Below are positions 2,467-63,171 of a DNA stretch of 64,000 nucleotides, piece after piece; the stretch's first letter is position 1, and each line of letters starts with the position of its first letter. The notes under the pieces are model-generated. The model was given only the letters and a program-made list of their open reading frames with translations, ran no database searches and was not told the DNA's origin. The position numbers and the translations under genes are program-made. This DNA is from a virus, in IMG/VR virus record IMGVR_UViG_3300017917_003565, positions 32,001 to 96,000 of that record; one strand, written 5' to 3'.

Positions 2467-4527
2467 TCACAATATCACCGCTTCAATAATCTTTTGACCC
2501 GGATCAAGATTGGTTTCTAAAGATTTAGCAAACACTGCCTGTCCATAGGTACGATCCAATCCTATGCTCTTGGCACTACCAGGTATAGAATCCGTGACTA
2601 GACCATCGCCTTTGGTCACTGGTCCCATCACATTGACCTTCACACGCCCACGCAGGGCTACGGGTATACCGTCAGCCCCGGCATTCATTAAGTGTGCTGG
2701 TTTGTCACTGATAACTCCAGCTACTCTAGCATCAGCGAATTCTGTGCAGATGGTTATTTCGGCATCTCCGCCAAATATCACTACCACTCCTGGCGCATAG
2801 GCCTGATCTGGCAGATAGTTTTCTGCAAGGTCTGCATACACCGCACTGGTGGACTGCGCAAACACTGTGTTAAAATAGTTGGTATCACTACCTATGTTAC
2901 CAATGGCATTACCATTGGCATTGATAATGTTGCCCAGAGTCACTGTGCCAGTGCCTACATTGAGATTGCCCACAGTGGCATTGCCTGTGGCAGTGATAGA
3001 TCCGGAGGTTTCTAAGTTGCCCACAGTGGTATTGCCTGTGGCAGTGATAGATCCGGAGGTTTCTAAGTTGCCCACTGTAGCATTACCTGTGGCCGATAGG
3101 ATGGCCGACACTACGTTACCAGTCACTGACAACGAAGTACCAGTCATGATGCCACCCGACACTGATATTGCTGAGACTGCTCCAGTCACCAAAAGATTAC
3201 CAATCACATCTTGACCCAAAGGTGTGAACAAAGCAACAGGAGCGATGCCATTGACATTGACTGATATATTACCGGCACTGCCGCCGATCAATACATTGGA
3301 GTTGCCATTTTGCAAAGTAGATACATTGACATCGGTCAGTAGGCTACCGTTGCCTATGATGTAGTTTCCAATGATGTTGCCTGTGGCCGAAACACGACCT
3401 CCGGTGTTGATATTACCCCCGGTGATGTTGGCAGTGGCAGCCACTGTAACTCCGGTGTAGTTGGCAGCAGAAATGTCACCACCTACATTGACATCCTGTA
3501 TCACGTTTAAGAATCCAGTGGTGCGTATGTTGCCTGTGGCCGAAATCTGGCCACCAGTGATGATATTGCCGCCGGTGATGTTGCCAATAGCCACCACTCG
3601 AGCCAAACTGTTGATGTTGTTGCCTACCACATTGCCAGCAGCATAGACAATATCATTGGAGTTGACATTGCCAGCTACCACGTTGGCGGTAGTGAACACA
3701 AACCCTGTGGTTCGCAGATTGCCAGCGTCTACGTTGCCTGTGGCGCTGACTGCGCCCAGGATGTTGAGAACATTGGGTCCACTGTTGTCAAATACCAGAC
3801 CTGCGGTAGCAGCCACGTTGCCGGCTCCATCATTGAATACCACTGCACCACCAGGCCCAGGAATGTTGGTGATGTTGGCCACGATGTTGCCAGTGAAGTT
3901 ACCAACAAAAAATCCTGCAGTCACGATGTTGCCCGTGGCACTGACTGTGCCGACGGTATCTATGTTGGCACCATTGACATTGCCGGCTGAGATATTGCCG
4001 TTGGTAGAGATGGTGTTACTGCCAAACGAGGACAACAATGTGACTACGTTGGCATCAGTATAAGTAGCCGGTAACCCTGTGAGTTGGCTACCGTTGCCCA
4101 AGATATAGTCTCCGGTGACGTTGCCGGTGGCTGATACTACACCATCCACATACTGTCCAGTAGTACTCACCACTACCACGTTGCTTAGTCCGCCCACACT
4201 CATGGTAATAGGAGCACCAAGGTCATCAATGCTGACGTTGCTAGTACCCAATGATATACTGGTAACCGAGATGTTACCAGTCTGGGCCAGTTGCCCCCAG
4301 ATCACTGTGCTGCCGTCATAGTCAGCAAAACAATAGTAAAAAAAGCTGGAATCATAGGCATACATACCGGCGGTGTCACCAAAAGTACCCACTAACGAAA
4401 TCGGGGGATCTGTTTGTACACGGCTGTAGAGCTCGCTGAAGTTGCTGTTGCAATAGTTAAATGCAGTGGCTAGGGGTGTTCCGTCACCGGAATTTTGTGG
4501 TGTGGTTACGATGGTAAGTTGAGCCAT
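2467..4527 (-). CDS. Tail fibre / baseplate-attached fibre protein
   Basis: N-terminal GDGTPLATAF..CNSNF (T4 gp9/gp10-like attachment motif), many '(S/T)ATGN(I/V)..GN' repeats, C-terminal 'YADLAENY...GVIS..PA..MN...VALRGRV' domain; TAAATA at 4549-4554. Confidence 0.8.
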   Translation of the reverse strand: MAQLTIVTTPQNSGDGTPLATAFNYCNSNFSELYSRVQTDPPISLVGTFGDTAGMYAYDSSFFYYCFADYDGSTVIWGQLAQTGNISVTSISLGTSNVSIDDLGAPITMSVGGLSNVVVVSTTGQYVDGVVSATGNVTGDYILGNGSQLTGLPATYTDANVVTLLSSFGSNTISTNGNISAGNVNGANIDTVGTVSATGNIVTAGFFVGNFTGNIVANITNIPGPGGAVVFNDGAGNVAATAGLVFDNSGPNVLNILGAVSATGNVDAGNLRTTGFVFTTANVVAGNVNSNDIVYAAGNVVGNNINSLARVVAIGNITGGNIITGGQISATGNIRTTGFLNVIQDVNVGGDISAANYTGVTVAATANITGGNINTGGRVSATGNIIGNYIIGNGSLLTDVNVSTLQNGNSNVLIGGSAGNISVNVNGIAPVALFTPLGQDVIGNLLVTGAVSAISVSGGIMTGTSLSVTGNVVSAILSATGNATVGNLETSGSITATGNTTVGNLETSGSITATGNATVGNLNVGTGTVTLGNIINANGNAIGNIGSDTNYFNTVFAQSTSAVYADLAENYLPDQAYAPGVVVIFGGDAEITICTEFADARVAGVISDKPAHLMNAGADGIPVALRGRVKVNVMGPVTKGDGLVTDSIPGSAKSIGLDRTYGQAVFAKSLETNLDPGQKIIEAVIL
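2966..3098. repeat. In-frame 51-bp tandem repeat (about 2.6 copies) in the fibre gene
   Basis: Units start at 2966, 3017 and 3068 and encode (A/T)TVGNLETSGSITATGN. Confidence 0.9.
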
Positions 4528-8230: not shown

Positions 8231-8751
8231 TCCACATTGGGCGGAGGCATGGCCTTTAGTTTATCCCACACTGATTGTTTTTCTTTGATGTGTTTTTCCA
8301 AAGCTCGATAGCGATCACCCAGTTCTCGCAGTTCCTGCCATTCAGATTCCAGAGCTGGATTTACGGTCAACAGATTCAATCTTTCTCGAATTTCGCGTAT
8401 GGAGCCCATGAGACTTTCGCCATTGATTTCGATGTCAGCATCTTCACCGTTGACTTGTAGTTTGGCACCGGTGGGATTGCTGGTAATCCAGGGAGCCACG
8501 GTAGCTGTCCCTGTGTTGGTCCAAACATTGGGATAAGCATACCCGTTGGTCCCACTGACGTTATTGATCGCAGTAAGATCGCTGATGGTCAGAGTGGGCA
8601 CCGTGCCGCTGGCAGTGTAATAATCACCATCACCACTGTAGGAACCAATATGGCTGAAATCGAGCGTGATGCTGTTATTGTCATTGATGATGATGCTGTC
8701 ATCCATGGTTTGAGAGGCTGTGCCCGGAGGCACATTTATTGTAAGTGACAT
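8227..8751 (-). CDS. Hypothetical protein
   Basis: 174 aa; Thr-rich N-terminus, coiled-coil C-terminus. Confidence 0.65.
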   Translation of the reverse strand: MSLTINVPPGTASQTMDDSIIINDNNSITLDFSHIGSYSGDGDYYTASGTVPTLTISDLTAINNVSGTNGYAYPNVWTNTGTATVAPWITSNPTGAKLQVNGEDADIEINGESLMGSIREIRERLNLLTVNPALESEWQELRELGDRYRALEKHIKEKQSVWDKLKAMPPPNVD

Positions 8752-9839
8752 TAGGCTTTCCTTTCGAACTCACGCATGAATTCCACCAGTGCTTGTACGC
8801 CTGCCACAGGCATGGCGTTGTAGATGCAGGCACGCATACCGCCGGCCAGTTTGTGCCCACGCAGAGCTATCAGCCCTGCTTCGGTTGATTGGGTCAAAAA
8901 CTTTTCATTCAATCCTTCATCTTTGAGATAAAACGTCACATTGGCCCGAGAACGGCACTCCGGACTGACCCGATTTTCATACAGCGAACTGGAATCAATG
9001 TAGTCGTACAACAAAGATGACTTGATTTTGCCAAGCCGTTCCATTTCTGCCACTCCGCCTTGGCGTTTGAGCCATTTCAACACCAGTCCAGAAACATAGA
9101 TTGCAAAAGTAGGTGGAGTGTTTACCCAAGGCACAGTATTTTTGGCCCAGTCCCAAATGGTCGGAGTTATGGGCATGGCGTGTCCCAACAGATCCCGGCG
9201 AACTATGACCACAGTGACTCCGGCTGGCCCTATGTTTTTTTGTGCTGCAGCAAACAACACTCCGCACTTACTGACGTCCATGTGCCTTGATAGGATATTG
9301 CTAGAGACATCAGCCACTAATGGCACTCCCGCGGTATCAGGAAAATCTTCAAACTCCACTCCGCCTACAGTTTCGTTGGAACAGATATGCACATAAGCTG
9401 CATCTTGAGAGAGATTCCATTGATCGCGATCTGGAATGCTGGTAAACTGACCATTGGATGGACAAGCCACGATGTTTGCCTGCCCATATTTTTGTGCTTC
9501 TTGGGCCGACATCTCAGACCAGATACCAGTGACAACAAAATCAGCTGTGCGATTCTTGGACAATGGCAAGAGATTCATGGGTATGGCTGCATTTTGTCCA
9601 ATACCTCCTCCCTGCAACATCAATATTTCATAGTCATCGGGAATCGCCATCAACTCACGTAGGTCAGCCAATGTTTCATAATAGACTTCTAAGAACTCCT
9701 GGCTACGATGGTTGAGTTCCATCATGCTGGTGCCTACACCGTTCCAGTTCAACATTTCGTCGGCGACCTGTTGTAGGACTTCTTCAGGTAGAGCCGACGG
9801 TCCGGGAGTGAAGTTGTAAACCCGATGATCAAACTTCAT
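8751..9839 (-). CDS. serC: Phosphoserine aminotransferase
   Basis: YNF.PGP..LP, HRS, LQGGG, CSNET..G, DVSS, AQKNIGPAG (PLP Lys), NTPPTF, GH...GG.RA..YNA. Confidence 0.95.
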   Translation of the reverse strand: MKFDHRVYNFTPGPSALPEEVLQQVADEMLNWNGVGTSMMELNHRSQEFLEVYYETLADLRELMAIPDDYEILMLQGGGIGQNAAIPMNLLPLSKNRTADFVVTGIWSEMSAQEAQKYGQANIVACPSNGQFTSIPDRDQWNLSQDAAYVHICSNETVGGVEFEDFPDTAGVPLVADVSSNILSRHMDVSKCGVLFAAAQKNIGPAGVTVVIVRRDLLGHAMPITPTIWDWAKNTVPWVNTPPTFAIYVSGLVLKWLKRQGGVAEMERLGKIKSSLLYDYIDSSSLYENRVSPECRSRANVTFYLKDEGLNEKFLTQSTEAGLIALRGHKLAGGMRACIYNAMPVAGVQALVEFMREFERKA

Positions 9840-9844
9840 GATGA

Positions 9845-10033
9845 TTAGGTTTTTTGAGCCAGGGCTTCTTTTTCTGCGGTGATTTCTTTACGGCGTTCTT
9901 TGATGGCCTTGCTCATTTCTTGCAGAGCTTTGCGGGCGCGGGCAGCCGAGGCTTTGACGCCTTTGCCGGAGAACTTGTCATTTTCAGCCAAGTAGGTTTC
10001 GAATGCTGTTTTGATTGCTTCGTGATTGCTCAT
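9845..10033 (-). CDS. Histone H1-like Hc1 family small basic protein
   Basis: ENDKF..KG.KASAARARKALQEM......RRKEI. Confidence 0.7.
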   Translation of the reverse strand: MSNHEAIKTAFETYLAENDKFSGKGVKASAARARKALQEMSKAIKERRKEITAEKEALAQKT

Positions 10034-10338: not shown

Positions 10339-10575
10339 CTAGTGTAGAACTTGATCAACAGGTCTAGGCTCGTTGACTTGCTCTACATATTTAACGAATT
10401 CGTCGTCAATAATCAGTCTCTCGTCGTCGTGGGCCTGTGCCTGCTCGTCTGGCACTCCCAAAATCCTCATGAGGCCGCCAACATGAACTTCGGTTATACC
10501 ACAGTCATGCAATACCACGCAGAGATTTAGAATCGACAGGCGTATGGCCTGATCAACAGGAAGATCGTCCAGCAT
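10339..10575 (-). CDS. Hypothetical protein
   Basis: ATG 6 nt after TAAGTA. Confidence 0.6.
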   Translation of the reverse strand: MLDDLPVDQAIRLSILNLCVVLHDCGITEVHVGGLMRILGVPDEQAQAHDDERLIIDDEFVKYVEQVNEPRPVDQVLH

Positions 10576-10589
10576 AACACATACTTATG

Positions 10590-10868
10590 CTATCGGTATC
10601 GGCTTTCAATTTCTTGGGGTGATGATGGAACCACGCCTGTGGTCACTGTGTGTATTTTAACGATGCCGGATTCTTGGCACACAGGCTCGTCGGCAAATGC
10701 CCGGCTCACACGACAATCTTTGTTGTTTACGGCACTAACAGCATGGTCAGTTACTGTGCGTCCAGTAGTTTCACTCACAGCCACACTGCCTATGCCCAGT
10801 CCGGTGAGTACCATGGGAGTAGCACAACCCGACAATGCTACGGTACAGATCAACAGACAGCGGATCAT
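10590..10868 (-). CDS. Putative lipoprotein
   Basis: Signal peptide with lipobox LSGC; AGGAG RBS. Confidence 0.7.
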   Translation of the reverse strand: MIRCLLICTVALSGCATPMVLTGLGIGSVAVSETTGRTVTDHAVSAVNNKDCRVSRAFADEPVCQESGIVKIHTVTTGVVPSSPQEIESRYR

Positions 10869-10879
10869 GAGCTCTCCTA

Positions 10880-11190
10880 TGTAAGTGCCCGGCTACCTTA
10901 TGTCACAGGCCCCGGGCTGGAATAATACCAATTCGATGTGCTGTTTACTATCCCGCCGCAGTCGGTGTGGCCAAGTTTAAGGACTCACTACCACCAACCC
11001 GCACCACTAAGGCTGGTGCGCCGCCCTTCATTTGCCCCGAAGCCGGGTTGACATAGGTTTTGCTACTGGACTATTTGCTAGACCTCAACGGCTTTACTCG
11101 AGTTTACGGTTTATTGATCTAGTTAGTCAGGCTTGATCCGGTCCATCGCTTCCAATAGCAAAACCTATATCAGGGGGCGAACCCCCTGTG
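10880..11190 (-). ncRNA. Candidate structured ncRNA cluster
   Basis: About 310 nt without an ORF; UUCG hairpin, 21-bp closing stem around a three-way junction, further hairpins; G-U pairs work only on the minus strand. Confidence 0.6.
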
Positions 11191-11193
11191 GTA

Positions 11194-11517
11194 TTAGGCT
11201 ACTTCTTTAACTGCAGATTTTGCAGATGCTTTAGTTGCCTTGACCTTGACTTCACCGCGCTTGGCGATCTTGGTCTTCTCAGCCAGTTTGTTGGCTACTG
11301 CATAGCCAGCGTCGCCAGTCATGCCCAAAGTCTGCAAGTGCTGGAGAGCTTCTAACTTGGTCATTGCCTTGGGCAATTCGATCAAGTTAATGTTGGTGCA
11401 ACCTGCTTTGTTGAGGATCTTGATACGAGCTACCAAGTCATTGGCGAAACGAGCTTTGACAGTACCGTTAGGGTTCTGTGCCGTACCTGCTACTGTGAAT
11501 AACTTTTCTGCTGCCAT
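11194..11517 (-). CDS. Conserved basic hypothetical protein
   Basis: FTVAG....G.VKARFAND...RIKIL.K.G...I.L.ELP..MTK; own promoter TTGACA-17-TATAAT at 11580-11608. Confidence 0.7.
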   Translation of the reverse strand: MAAEKLFTVAGTAQNPNGTVKARFANDLVARIKILNKAGCTNINLIELPKAMTKLEALQHLQTLGMTGDAGYAVANKLAEKTKIAKRGEVKVKATKASAKSAVKEVA

Positions 11518-37400: not shown

Positions 37401-37864
37401 TAACTGTAAATCCAGCCCAGATTTTGTATTTTGTGTATCCACGTAAACACCGGAACATCAAATGTCAAGGTCCACTTACCGTTCCACCCCAGGTAACTTT
37501 GATTGGTCAACTGTTGCTGAAGTGCGACTCCACGTGATCGTTGCTCTTGGATCCAGAGTTTAGGATATCGAGGTTCATATACTCCGGCCCACACAAACTT
37601 GGGATCACTGATGCCAAAGAAACTCACGTTGTTGATAATCACAGCCTTGTCAAGATTGTGTTCTGGCACGGTGTCGTGATCGCGTTTGTTCAAAAACTCC
37701 ACTGTGAGATCACAGGGTTTATCGGATTCGAATTCAAACTCCAATGTGGCAGGTCTTGTGAGATCTCTTTCGCGCCGATCATCATTTACTGCCACACATA
37801 TACGAGGTGGTTCGGAATGCCAAACCGGCACAAGAGTGATTGCAAGTTTAACTGGATGTTTCAT
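37400..37864 (-). CDS. Hypothetical protein
   Basis: YLGWNG.W.L.F..PVF.W.H motif; overlaps the radical SAM gene. Confidence 0.6.
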   Translation of the reverse strand: MKHPVKLAITLVPVWHSEPPRICVAVNDDRRERDLTRPATLEFEFESDKPCDLTVEFLNKRDHDTVPEHNLDKAVIINNVSFFGISDPKFVWAGVYEPRYPKLWIQEQRSRGVALQQQLTNQSYLGWNGKWTLTFDVPVFTWIHKIQNLGWIYS

Positions 37865-39173
37865 AGTTGTATTTTTGCAACAACTCATGGAATTCTGGAT
37901 ACAGCGTCCTGGCATTATAGCCATACACGCGATCCCAACGTTCACAATGACGTACCATGGTTTCGAGTTGTGTTTCACTGTCTGGGGGTGTTGGAGTGGT
38001 CAAAACATTCACGCACATCTCGATCTGTTGTTTGATTACCTGTTGATAGTTATTAGGATCGCTGGCATTGTAATCGCCCACAGAAGTCACAGCAGACAGT
38101 CTGTGTTGCAACTTCGAATATTTCTGTAGGTATTGTTTCTTTATGGACTCGGGCAAGATTTCTGCAGACAAAAATCTCGGGTTATAACAGAGATTGCTCT
38201 TCACTATCAACTGTTGGGTGAGAGCAAAATCCAACAGACCCGGATAATATCCAATGGTCAGTAGACTGGGCGCCGGACGCAGAGTCACTGTAATATTGGA
38301 ACCATTGCAATGGGCTTGATATTGTTGTATATTAGACAGTACCAAAGCAGTATCAGTGCCTTGACGTTGGTAGGCATTGTGCTCATCCACGGTCTCTATA
38401 CTGATCTCCATGCCCACTCTGCGAAATCGTTTGAGTTTTTCAATCAACTGAGGACGAAACACTGTACCATTGGTCACAAAACTAAAACAAAGGTCGAATC
38501 TTTCATGCTGAATCATGAAATCTATCAAATCTTCAAGTCTAGGAGTCAACAAGGTTTCACCGCCCATGAAATGAATGTTGTTGAGGCCAGGTAGATCTAA
38601 TAACTGTTGTTTGAAACTGTTCCACACTTCGAGATTCTGTGTCCAGTCAGTGCCTAGATATTCGCGACTGGCATCAATGCCCCAACGTACCTCTTGACTG
38701 GCTATCACGCTGCTGGCTTGGGCATTACACATCTTACAGGCTAGATTACAGTAGTTGCCAAGATCGATGTGCAGGTCAATAGGTGTAGTAGTGGTGTATC
38801 CGTGATTGTTGGCGCTGTAAACAAACTTGGCGTGCCCGGGACTCTGTTGGAAACTGTCATTGAATGCAGACCTAGTGAAGATCACACTTTTCTGATTACT
38901 TTTGTGTCGACGACTGTTGCCATCGTGCGATTCTTCAATGTAACACCGTTGACACAACGACAATGGTGTGGTCGCCAGTATATTGGTTCTGAAATCACGC
39001 ACAGGTTCACTGTTAAACCAATCCTGTATGCTCATACGAGCAATATTGTACTGAGTGTGGCCAGGCTGATACAACTTATGTGCTTCTTGGCAACAAATCC
39101 CTAGGTCACCGTTCCAATAAATGTGTAACTCGTACCAGGGTGTGTTGCAAAATATGTGTTGATTAGGCGTCAC
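37848..39173 (-). CDS. Radical SAM protein with N-terminal SPASM/twitch-like Cys cluster
   Basis: [16 protein letters not shown]; N-terminal FCNTPW ... CC ... CQRC. Confidence 0.88.
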
Positions 39174-59606: not shown

Positions 59607-61531
<1,925 letters not shown>

Positions 61532-61756: not shown

Positions 61757-61978
61757 TCAGTAGAGTTTTTTAGGCAACTGTTGGTCACGCAGTTTGCGCA
61801 ACCATCTTGCTCGGGCAGCGCCCTTTTTGCGTTTGCGCACAGTCGTGGGTTTTTCGTAGGTTTCACGGCTTCGTAGTTCATCTAGTAGGCCAGATTCCTG
61901 CACCTTTTTCTTAAACTTACGTAGAGCTTTTTCTACGTTGCCATCTTTGACAATCACACCCTTGCGATATTCTTTCAC
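61757..61978 (-). CDS. rpsU: Ribosomal protein bS21
   Basis: [13 protein letters not shown]...G.L.E.R.RE.YEKPT..RKRKK.AA..R ... LY. Confidence 0.93.
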
Positions 61979-63171
61979 GTATTTTCCTGTACCAGTGTCA
62001 TGGGTGTATTTACCTGGGTTTTATTGATAACCACACGCAGAATATTGTTGCGGGCGTACCTGGACAGATCAAACATGTGCGGCAACAATACTCTCTCCAG
62101 CTCGCTGTGCAGGCCTCGGGCACCAGTATGAGTGTTTAATGTTCGTTCTGCTATCTGTTCCAGGCTTTCCTGATCAAACTCCAGTTCCACGCCATCGGCG
62201 CTAAACAAGGTCTGATATTGTTTGACAAAGTTTCCTCGTACCTGTGTCAAAATACTGATCAACTGTGCCTTGTCGAGATCGTGTAGATTTACATAGGTAC
62301 CAAATCTACCCACAAACTCAGGAATCATACCATACTTGACTAAGTCATCTGGAATCACTGTTTCCATAGGTATTGCTCGGTCACTTAGTTGTGCTCCAAA
62401 TCCAATAGCAGTACCTCGGATCCTGTTTTGTATGATCTTGTCAAGACCCACAAATGCGCCTCCGGCTATGAATAAGATATTGGTAGTATCGATCTCTACA
62501 GTTTCTCCTGCGGAAGTTTTTCTGGTACCCATAGCAGGTATGCGACACTTGGTGCCTTCGATAAGTTTTAACAAGGCCTGTTGTACTCCTTCTCCCGACA
62601 CATCTCTGCTGACTGTGGCACTTTCACTTTTCCTGGCGATTTTGTCAATCTCATCTAAAAAAACTATGCCTCTTTGGCATGCGTCAATGTCTCCGTTGGC
62701 CGCTGTGTACAATCTTGAGATCATGCTTTCTACATCATCGCCCACATACCCTGCTTCAGTCAAGCAAGTGGCATCTGCTATCACAAACGGCACTTCAAGA
62801 TATCGAGCCACGGTGCGGGCCATCAAGGTCTTGCCAGTTCCTGTGGGTCCAATCATCAGTAGATTGGCCTTTTGTATCTCCATGCCTGGGCGGTTGATAC
62901 GTTTGTAGTGATTGGCCACGGCCACGCTCAGCACGACCTTGGCTTGGTCCTGACCTACCACACACTGATCTAGATAATCACGTATGTCATGCGGATCCGG
63001 AATCTTTATGGCCGTGGATTTTTTCTGTGCAGTGGTTTTGGTGTCTCTCAGCAGAGTGCTACAAAGATCCACACATTCGTTGCAGATTGCTACTTTATGA
63101 CTGACAATGAGTTTGTTGACTTGATCCTTGTGTTTGTCACAAAAACTGCAATGATCATTGTTCACGGTCAT
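61975..63171 (-). CDS. clpX: Clp protease ATP-binding subunit ClpX
   Basis: CSFC..C..C zinc domain, [41 protein letters not shown] loop, GARGL. Confidence 0.97.

Follow-up and report, generated by a model that had tools for sequence, protein, structure and literature searches.

The locus lies in a 64-kb stretch of viral DNA (hereafter called the window), which is part of a 112-kb virus record that is estimated to be 33% complete. The window contains several auxiliary genes of the giant phage, i.e., those for a class-V aminotransferase (8751-9839), an Hc1 histone H1-like protein (9845-10033), a radical SAM/SPASM protein (37848-39173), a GroEL-type chaperonin (59607-61232), and a ClpX-like ATPase (61975-63171). 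The features of the locus itself are all located on the minus strand, and their coordinates are given in that direction. A consensus sigma-70-type promoter at 11608-11580, with TTGACA and TATAAT boxes separated by 17 nt (12 of 12 consensus matches), is located upstream of an open reading frame (ORF) for a 107-aa protein (11517-11194, with the stop codon at 11196-11194). In the 3' untranslated region of this gene, a GC-rich hairpin, CAGGGGG-UUCG-CCCCCUG (11188-11171), abuts P1, the closing stem of an RNA element of 122 nt (11171-11050), which is recognized with 110.6 bits by the covariance model R1 described below. The element is followed by a separate 3' module of local hairpins (11049-10881) and then by a lipoprotein-like ORF of 92 aa (10868-10590), which has a ribosome-binding site, GGAG, at 10877-10874 and encodes a signal peptide ending in ...LSGC. 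The transcript with the RNA element probably starts from this promoter. Since its boxes match the consensus completely and terminator prediction yielded no terminator-like site ahead of the lipoprotein gene in the window, co-transcription of the region from this promoter, as proposed in the original prediction, is plausible.

The 107-aa protein represents a strongly conserved, phage-only family. Its relatives were found at 137 viral loci in IMG/VR, on contigs with a length of up to 364 kb, and identity amounts to 70-92% among the 80 loci that were kept. Pfam, PHROG, PDB, and Atlas gave no lead to this protein, nor was a lead to its fold obtained. The GC-rich hairpin behind the gene, which had been noticed before, received no intrinsic-terminator score in a terminator scan. 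A stem of the CAGGGG...CCCCUG type also follows the 107-aa gene in several relatives that lack the RNA element (e.g., L002, L003, L005, and L047), and the hairpin therefore belongs to the 3' end of this gene and not to the RNA element.

A variable hot spot is formed by the spacer that separates the 107-aa gene from a conserved gene for a 78-aa protein (10340-11200 in the window; around 3300-4100 in the loci L002-L081). In the various relatives, it contains no insert, a terminator only, the lipoprotein gene, a DUF805-like membrane ORF (MSKPVFEDLFKF...GRRNRQSY), the RNA element, the 3' module, or several of these together. A search of the 80 fetched loci with the spacer of the window revealed the RNA element in L006, L007, L009, L012, and L013/L024, and the 3' part in L003, L006, L008, and L022. 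A canonical terminator is present directly 3' of the element in L012 and L009, in which the 107-aa gene has the element as its 3' untranslated region. Thirteen related loci have the lipoprotein gene, some together with the RNA element and others without it. It is an optional gene of the variable spacer without a link to the RNA element, and the connection between the two that was originally suggested is not borne out by the family at large either, since the element is mostly located in tRNA arrays without a downstream ORF.

At the site of the element, two relatives carry another interior within a long stem whose base is the same (GATATTG.../...CAATGTC), i.e., L003 (3040-3180), where the interior is a structured insert of ~40 nt, and L004 (3285-3420), where it is an 8-nt loop. 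These stems suggest interior swapping or decay, and they would fit with an exchange of cassettes.

The 3' module consists of hairpins at 11047-11036, 11020-11000, and 10917-10887, and it is known from six sequences, i.e., the window and five close relatives. The second hairpin (CGCACCA/UGGUGCG) and the third (GCCCGG..GCCU/AGGU..CCGGGC) had been predicted and do exist. However, the assumption that the ~310 nt constitute a single block of tandem domains had to be abandoned, as the RNA element and the 3' module occur independently in relatives. Two small hairpins of the module show a few compensatory changes, the covariation in these six sequences being weak. The last hairpin, of 31 nt (GCCCGGGGCCU...AGGUAGCCGGGC), does not vary among the six loci, which are otherwise diverged, and the start codon that follows it, be it that of the lipoprotein gene or that of the 78-aa gene, is always ~20 nt away. 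It may act as a 5' stabilizer or as an operator.

Fold of the RNA element and its family

The RNA element is organized as a three-way junction, which is closed by P1 and has the hairpin P2 and the arm P3-P4 as its branches. In P1, the 21-nt 5' arm (11171-11151) pairs with the 3' arm (11070-11050), ahead of which lies the conserved junction strand CAAAUAG (11077-11071). This stem contains two U-G pairs on the minus strand, and it ranks first among the inverted repeats of the whole window. P2 (11147-11126) is formed by an outer pair, G11147-C11126, and a stem of 11145-11141 with 11132-11128, and its 8-nt loop (11140-11133) contains the palindrome GAUC at 11138-11135. The P3-P4 arm (11122-11078) is composed of P3 (11122-11116 with 11084-11078), an internal loop with AAUAA (11115-11111) opposite UGA (11087-11085), and P4 (11110-11106 with 11092-11088), which is capped by a 13-nt loop (11105-11093) with the palindrome CUCGAG at 11102-11097. 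In the copy of the window, P2 is interrupted by one A-C mismatch and P4 by one C-C mismatch. When the 328-nt spacer was compared with its own shuffles, it folded better on the minus strand (z = -3.1) and not on the plus strand (z = -0.9), and the region contains only chance-sized ORFs.

Homologues of the element were collected from IMG/VR with pattern scans and the covariance model R1. A search pattern for the family is GTAA-N7-TAAAGC-N(3-5)-TGA-N(5-9)-GCANANAGT; the loop bases were fixed in one earlier scan and left free in two IMG/VR scans. A variant of the pattern with 8 rather than 7 free bases between GTAA and TAAAGC retrieved six true variants with a 14-nt loop from IMG/VR. With R1 at E <= 0.001 as the threshold for membership, the family comprises 74 copies, 65 of which are distinct, in uncultured phage contigs, with R1 scores of 54-150 bits. 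The pattern matches in L088, L106, L108, L109, L125, L160, L163, L164, L175, L177, and L178 failed this threshold and are chance or coding matches, and the match in L092 is confined to the P4 region.

The members are ~105-127 nt long, mostly 120-127 nt, and follow a consensus order of P1, an AGC junction, P2, a UAA junction, P3, the AAUAA/UGA internal loop, P4 with a loop of 13-14 nt, and a CA(A/U)A(U/C)AG junction. In the R1 alignment, standard pairs occupy 92.8% of the pair cells, as compared with 70.4% after shuffling and 34-41% when the partners were slid, although, with sequences related by descent, such cell counts suggest more independent events than there were. Compensatory changes affecting both sides of a pair were found at 35 of the 40 base pairs; the observed values were reached in none of 500 shuffles, and an independent MAFFT alignment gave the same covariation result. 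Such changes are present at 21 of the 22 modelled pairs of P1, the length of which is 19-22 bp, i.e., about two helical turns, in 62 of the 65 copies. G-U pairs account for 120 of the 1345 P1 pairs (9%), which identifies the minus strand of the window as the RNA strand. Approximately 35 unpaired or junction bases are invariant or nearly so across the family, and such a large number of invariant junction bases would also fit with a catalytic or ligand-binding core.

Judged from its sequence, the segment 11171-11050 on the minus strand is a real gene for a folded RNA and belongs to an uncatalogued family found in large, T4-like phages from freshwater (lakes). The original prediction is upheld in its long stem with two U-G pairs, its choice of strand, the absence of an ORF, and its outline of a discrete, strand-specific structured RNA of ~120 nt, predicted at 11051-11171, in which a long stem encloses a compact conserved core. 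The inner helices have to be redrawn, since the covariation over 65 distinct homologues supports P2, P3, and P4 instead of UGGACC/GGUCUA, GAUC/GAUC, and CUCGA/UUGAG. GAUC and CUCGAG are not intramolecular helices but unpaired loop palindromes, and it is the covariation of these palindromic loops, the key feature of the RNA, that had been overlooked.

A divergent member is located in L136 (6233-6365, minus strand; 53.8 bits), outside any tRNA array, on a contig of 30.6 kb that is 81% complete. It has kept the P4 palindrome CAGCUG, and its P2 loop is the GNRA-like CGCAA instead of a palindrome.

The family is absent from Rfam 15. None of the 4227 models of this release matched anywhere in the window at the gathering score, and a search with three members of the family at E <= 10 returned only noise (MEG8_3, DnaX, MIR7993, and RAGATH-7 at 8.7 bits vs. 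111.8 needed). Blastn searches of GenBank phages at the "distant" setting gave no match for the region in the window or for a typical member. The family may nevertheless be listed without a name among 10,006 candidate viral RNAs published earlier (PMC10690425).

Genomic surroundings of the family

Within arrays of 2-45 tRNA genes, 58 of the 65 distinct copies are found, and every tRNA of these arrays is on the same strand as the RNA element. The array copies usually fill one inter-tRNA slot. In 31 copies, the first 2-4 nt of P1 lie within the CCA end of the preceding tRNA, which most often is a tRNA-Glu, and the next tRNA begins -3 to +13 nt from the end of P1 in 39 copies. Since the element fits such a slot exactly, the processing of the tRNA ends would free an RNA with paired ends. 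The copy in the window is not part of a tRNA array and follows the 107-aa gene; ARAGORN detected no tRNA in the window or in its record. In the relative G003, six tRNAs are located ~100 kb away from the RNA element.

The element is present in one copy per genome. It is missing from three relatives that are 93-100% complete and, thus, is dispensable. A T4 gp23-type capsid protein is encoded in all five complete carrier genomes tested (164-367 kb), and a distant homologue of the 107-aa protein in only some of the complete carrier genomes.

The same arrays hold other cassettes that are clamped by a near-constant stem of 18-22 bp (ACCATATAAAAACACA.../...TGTGTTTCTATATGGT) and have interiors of 37-96 nt (e.g., L101:770-859, L110:6223-6322, L085:5647-5725, and L153:4304-4405, with coordinates on the tRNA strand); interiors of ~200 nt are found in larger cassettes (L083:647-882, L085:3085-3339, and L122:11013-11254). 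Some of the stem-clamped cassettes directly abut the RNA element, with no tRNA in between. In these cassettes, like in the RNA element, a stem of ~20 bp starting from the CCA of the upstream tRNA clamps a folded interior. However, the stem of the cassettes hardly varies (ACCAUAUAAAAACACA.../...UGUGUUUCUAUAUGGU) and their interiors are many and unrelated, whereas the RNA element combines a constant interior with a freely covarying stem. Putative promoters of the element itself, with a start at P1, were considered upstream of copies of the L113, L121, L128, and L140 type and rejected, as the sequences concerned are the 3' arms of neighbouring stem-clamped cassettes.

GOLLD RNAs (RF02032), located in the tRNA arrays of these freshwater T4-like phages, were found in 8 of 50 carrier contigs and are absent from all three carrier genomes of this set that are at least 90% complete (G003, G019, and G035). 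The model, which covers the conserved 3' domain, matched GOLLD in L095, L097, L118, and L119 as positive controls at 196-223 bits, and the GOLLD RNAs in L119, L118, L097, L095, L096, L102, L151, and L129 scored 191-223 bits, each with an embedded tRNA. Full-length examples are L119:8247-8702, L118:999-1464, L097:407-872, and L095:1132-1594, all on the minus strand. In L095, L096, L097, L102, L118, L119, and L151, the element is located a few nt upstream of a full-length GOLLD on the same strand; these seven copies are ~405-430 nt upstream of the 3' domain of GOLLD, which places them at its 5' edge. No GOLLD was detected in the window or in its 112-kb record, and elsewhere the RNA element lies outside the GOLLD match.

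Other RNA genes were also noticed in element-bearing contigs, i.e., a phage-encoded tmRNA with the tag ANDSVYALAA (L122:11618-11990, minus strand) and a tRNA with a CUA anticodon, i.e., of the amber suppressor type (L102:2618-2694, plus strand).

Palindromic loops and proposed self-association

At one fixed position in the P4 loop, all 65 copies have a 6-nt palindrome, for which nine different hexamers are used (CUCGAG, CACGUG, CGAUCG, CAUAUG, CAAUUG, CAGCUG, CUGCAG, CGGCCG, and UCUAGA). The P2 loop contains a 4-nt palindrome in 64 of the 65 copies, the exception being the divergent member in L136, and seven tetramers are found there (GAUC, GUAC, GGCC, ACGU, GCGC, CUAG, and UGCA). When the mirror positions of the loops are treated as pairs, 97.5% of the cells are complementary vs. 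70.1% after shuffling, although, in members related by descent, counting the different palindromes is a more reliable measure. The covariation score of the mirror positions is 0.607 vs. 0.104 after shuffling and was reached in none of 500 shuffles. The two adjacent columns in the centre of a loop, columns 88-89, switch among CG, AU, GC, and UA.

The switching of palindromes has been presented as evidence for intermolecular kissing bridges in the OLE and GOLLD RNAs (Kretsch et al., Nature 2025, PMC12286853). The pattern on which that conclusion is based, i.e., loop palindromes that switch yet stay palindromic and adjacent bases that covary, is also found in the RNA element. Since neighbouring bases in the same chain are unable to pair, the covariation within the loops points to a symmetric loop-loop pairing between copies. 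This suggests that copies of the RNA may pair via their loops to form a dimer or a larger assembly. Pairing between the P2 and P4 loops within one molecule was considered and rejected, since the combinations GAUC/CUCGAG and GUAC/CGAUCG are not complementary; generally, the two loops of a molecule show no mutual complementarity. A pseudoknot between CUC in the P4 loop and a downstream UGAG was dismissed as well, as the fourth base varies (G, U, or A) and the loop does not vary with it.

The most satisfactory explanation, which we consider probable, is that the element specifies a small, self-associating phage RNA of ~120 nt, which would be excised from the transcripts of tRNA arrays or genes and form a homodimer or homo-oligomer by kissing loops. 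In the phage of the window, the RNA would be made from the consensus promoter as the 3' part of the transcript of the 107-aa gene. In most other phages, it would occupy one slot of the tRNA array, with P1 running from the CCA of the upstream tRNA to the 5' end of the next one, and ordinary tRNA processing would release it with paired and, hence, protected ends. In the folded RNA, P1 would join both ends, P2 would be a short hairpin, and P3-P4 a bent arm. The 6-nt palindrome of the P4 loop and the 4-nt palindrome of the P2 loop would each pair with the same loop of another copy, and such pairing of like with like would produce a symmetric homodimer or a larger homo-oligomer. Presumably, the RNA would then act during infection as a stable assembled particle, as do GOLLD and ROOL, the far larger RNAs of phage tRNA islands. 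Points against this explanation are the mismatches in P2 and P4 of the copy in the window, the position of this copy outside a tRNA array, the three relatives devoid of the element, and the non-palindromic P2 loop in L136.

Tentatively, this proposal may be taken further. With a rigid three-way junction fixing the angle between them, two orthogonal palindromic kissing loops could give rise to closed rings, cages, or filaments rather than to simple dimers, and the fast turnover of the palindromes could then represent an assembly code, a possibility that we consider rather less likely than self-association as such. If true, the RNA would represent a natural unit of minimal size that assembles by itself, comparable at 120 nt to the nanocages of GOLLD and ROOL, and the code would separate the RNAs of co-infecting phages or avoid the restriction sites of the host.

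The role of the RNAs that are kept in phage tRNA islands is an open question. The function of GOLLD and ROOL is, to our knowledge, not known, and we are not aware of an explanation for rnaC and rnaD of phage T4 after some 50 years. With members of only ~120 nt, the family described here is suited to inexpensive synthesis, mutagenesis, native-gel, and structural work, and its loop code lends itself to tests with compensatory mutations. Its spread over tRNA arrays, the vicinity of GOLLD, and the 3' untranslated region of a protein gene would allow for separating its function from tRNA processing. If multimerization is confirmed, RNA-only quaternary assemblies would not be limited to giant ornate RNAs, and a compact natural building block for RNA nanotechnology would become available.

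Alternative explanations and related RNAs

Other explanations differ mainly in what they make of the palindromes. In one of them, which corresponds to the RNase III processing of the original prediction, the RNA is a stem-clamped processing cassette, with P1 serving as a stalk at which RNase III or a similar enzyme cuts the polycistronic transcript, and with the interior acting in trans as a small RNA that pairs with other targets. The length of P1 in 62 of the 65 copies (19-22 bp, about two helical turns) provides the near-perfect duplex of ~20 bp that such an enzyme would need, the same arrays hold further RNAs clamped by stems of 18-22 bp, some of which abut the element, and L003 and L004 carry a long stem with the same base (GAUAUUG/CAAUGUC) around other interiors at this site. 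However, pairing with targets does not require palindromes, yet all nine hexamers are palindromic, and a search for a phage gene for RNase III in five carrier genomes was negative, although the host enzyme might be used. As the excision step is compatible with a self-associating RNA as well, this explanation is a rival only with regard to the role of the loops, and there it seems unlikely. Somewhat less probable again is that the element functions only together with GOLLD, e.g., by docking on or capping its nanocage. Seven contigs have the element a few nt upstream of the 5' domain of GOLLD on the same strand, but GOLLD is present in only 8 of the 50 carrier contigs and is lacking in G003, G019, and G035, each at least 90% complete, as well as in the record of the window. 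Moreover, GOLLD is full length without the element, and R1 gives no second match inside these GOLLD loci.

By analogy, the RNA could be a self-cleaving ribozyme, as also considered in the original prediction, that helps to process the transcripts of tRNA arrays. A preprint describes theta (HDV-like) ribozymes as adjoining phage tRNAs (bioRxiv 10.1101/2023.06.13.544163), and the ~35 unpaired and junction bases that vary little or not at all and the position flush with tRNA ends would be in line with this precedent. However, the three members compared with Rfam at E <= 10 matched no known ribozyme, including hammerhead, twister, twister-sister, pistol, hatchet, and HDV-like ribozymes, nor any other family; P1 closes both ends of the RNA, unlike in the HDV-like topology, and the palindromic loops would be left unexplained, which makes this option highly improbable. 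We attach even less weight to a function at the level of the DNA, such as that of terminal inverted repeats of a miniature mobile element, of an origin, or of palindromic binding or restriction sites. The varied slots and the variable spacer suggest mobility, and the loop hexamers are classical 6-bp palindromes of the restriction type. But the 9% G-U pairs in P1 would be A-C mismatches on the other strand, the array copies are all co-oriented with the tRNAs, four helices covary, and a DNA-binding protein acting as a dimer would have to come in nine different specificities. A cis-regulatory leader of the lipoprotein gene, i.e., a riboswitch or a translational operator, could be imagined from the window alone, where the RNA is located upstream of the ribosome-binding site of this gene. 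It has hardly any chance left, being already contradicted by the distribution of the element: there is no lipoprotein gene at the 58 tRNA-array copies, a terminator directly follows the element in L012 and L009, and most loci with the lipoprotein gene are devoid of the element.

For a self-associating RNA, GOLLD (RF02032) and ROOL (RF03087) are the closest parallels. Like the element, they are structured phage RNAs without a known function, located in or next to tRNA arrays and obtained from freshwater or lake phage material, and they have symmetric kissing loops that switch between palindromes (PMC12286853). Their vicinity to phage tRNA islands is described in the same study. However, they are ornate RNAs of 580-830 nt or longer with pseudoknots, whereas the RNA element has four helices in 120-127 nt, and there is no similarity in sequence or model. 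Also, their multimerization was solved by cryo-EM, whereas that of the element is deduced from sequence comparison.

The small stable RNAs rnaC and rnaD of phage T4 (species 1 and 2; AF158101, 70908-71171), which are 139 and 119 nt long and of unknown function, are located directly after tRNA-Arg in the T4 tRNA cluster and are analogues of the RNA element by position only. The gp23-type capsid is common to the T4-type phage encoding them and the carriers of the element. When the T4 region was searched with R1 with the filters off, rnaC and rnaD were not matched, the best match (E = 0.2) being located elsewhere. Their predicted folds differ from that of the element, and rnaC has a T-arm-like hairpin. 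We know of no palindromic-loop signature in these RNAs.

The dimerization initiation site (DIS) of HIV-1 and the packaging RNA (pRNA) of phage phi29 are examples of identical RNAs that are joined by loop-loop pairing. The DIS loop, a 6-nt palindrome flanked by purines, resembles the P4 loop of the element in both respects. However, the DIS is part of a viral genome and joins two genomes, the pRNA has non-palindromic loops and forms a ring on a protein connector, and, unlike the element, neither is associated with tRNAs. Both RNAs are mentioned in PMC12286853.

Bacterial Y RNAs (YrlA, which acts with Rsr/Ro60) have a long stem between their 5' and 3' ends that closes a multi-helix module, and some are phage-encoded near tRNAs. 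The RNA element shares this end-to-end stem around a multi-helix module. Its identification as a Y RNA was rejected, as it has no tRNA-like T-loop and no match with ARAGORN or with a Y RNA of Rfam. Similarly, a tRNA or tmRNA identity is not supported, since the three-way junction lacks a T-loop motif and ARAGORN found neither in the window or its record. A search for a TROVE/Ro60 gene (PF05731) was negative in five carrier genomes and positive in control genomes; possibly, a Ro60 protein of the host could be used.

A separate observation concerns the record of the window (G000, 112 kb), in which some 6-bp palindromes are strongly avoided. AGCGCT does not occur, against 9.7 occurrences expected, and ACGCGT, CGCGCG, and GCGCGC are also absent; AAGCTT occurs twice, against 12 expected, and GTGCAC four times, against 18.7. 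CTCGAG and GATC, the loop palindromes of the element, are not avoided in this record, which, coming from one genome, is to be taken as a lead.
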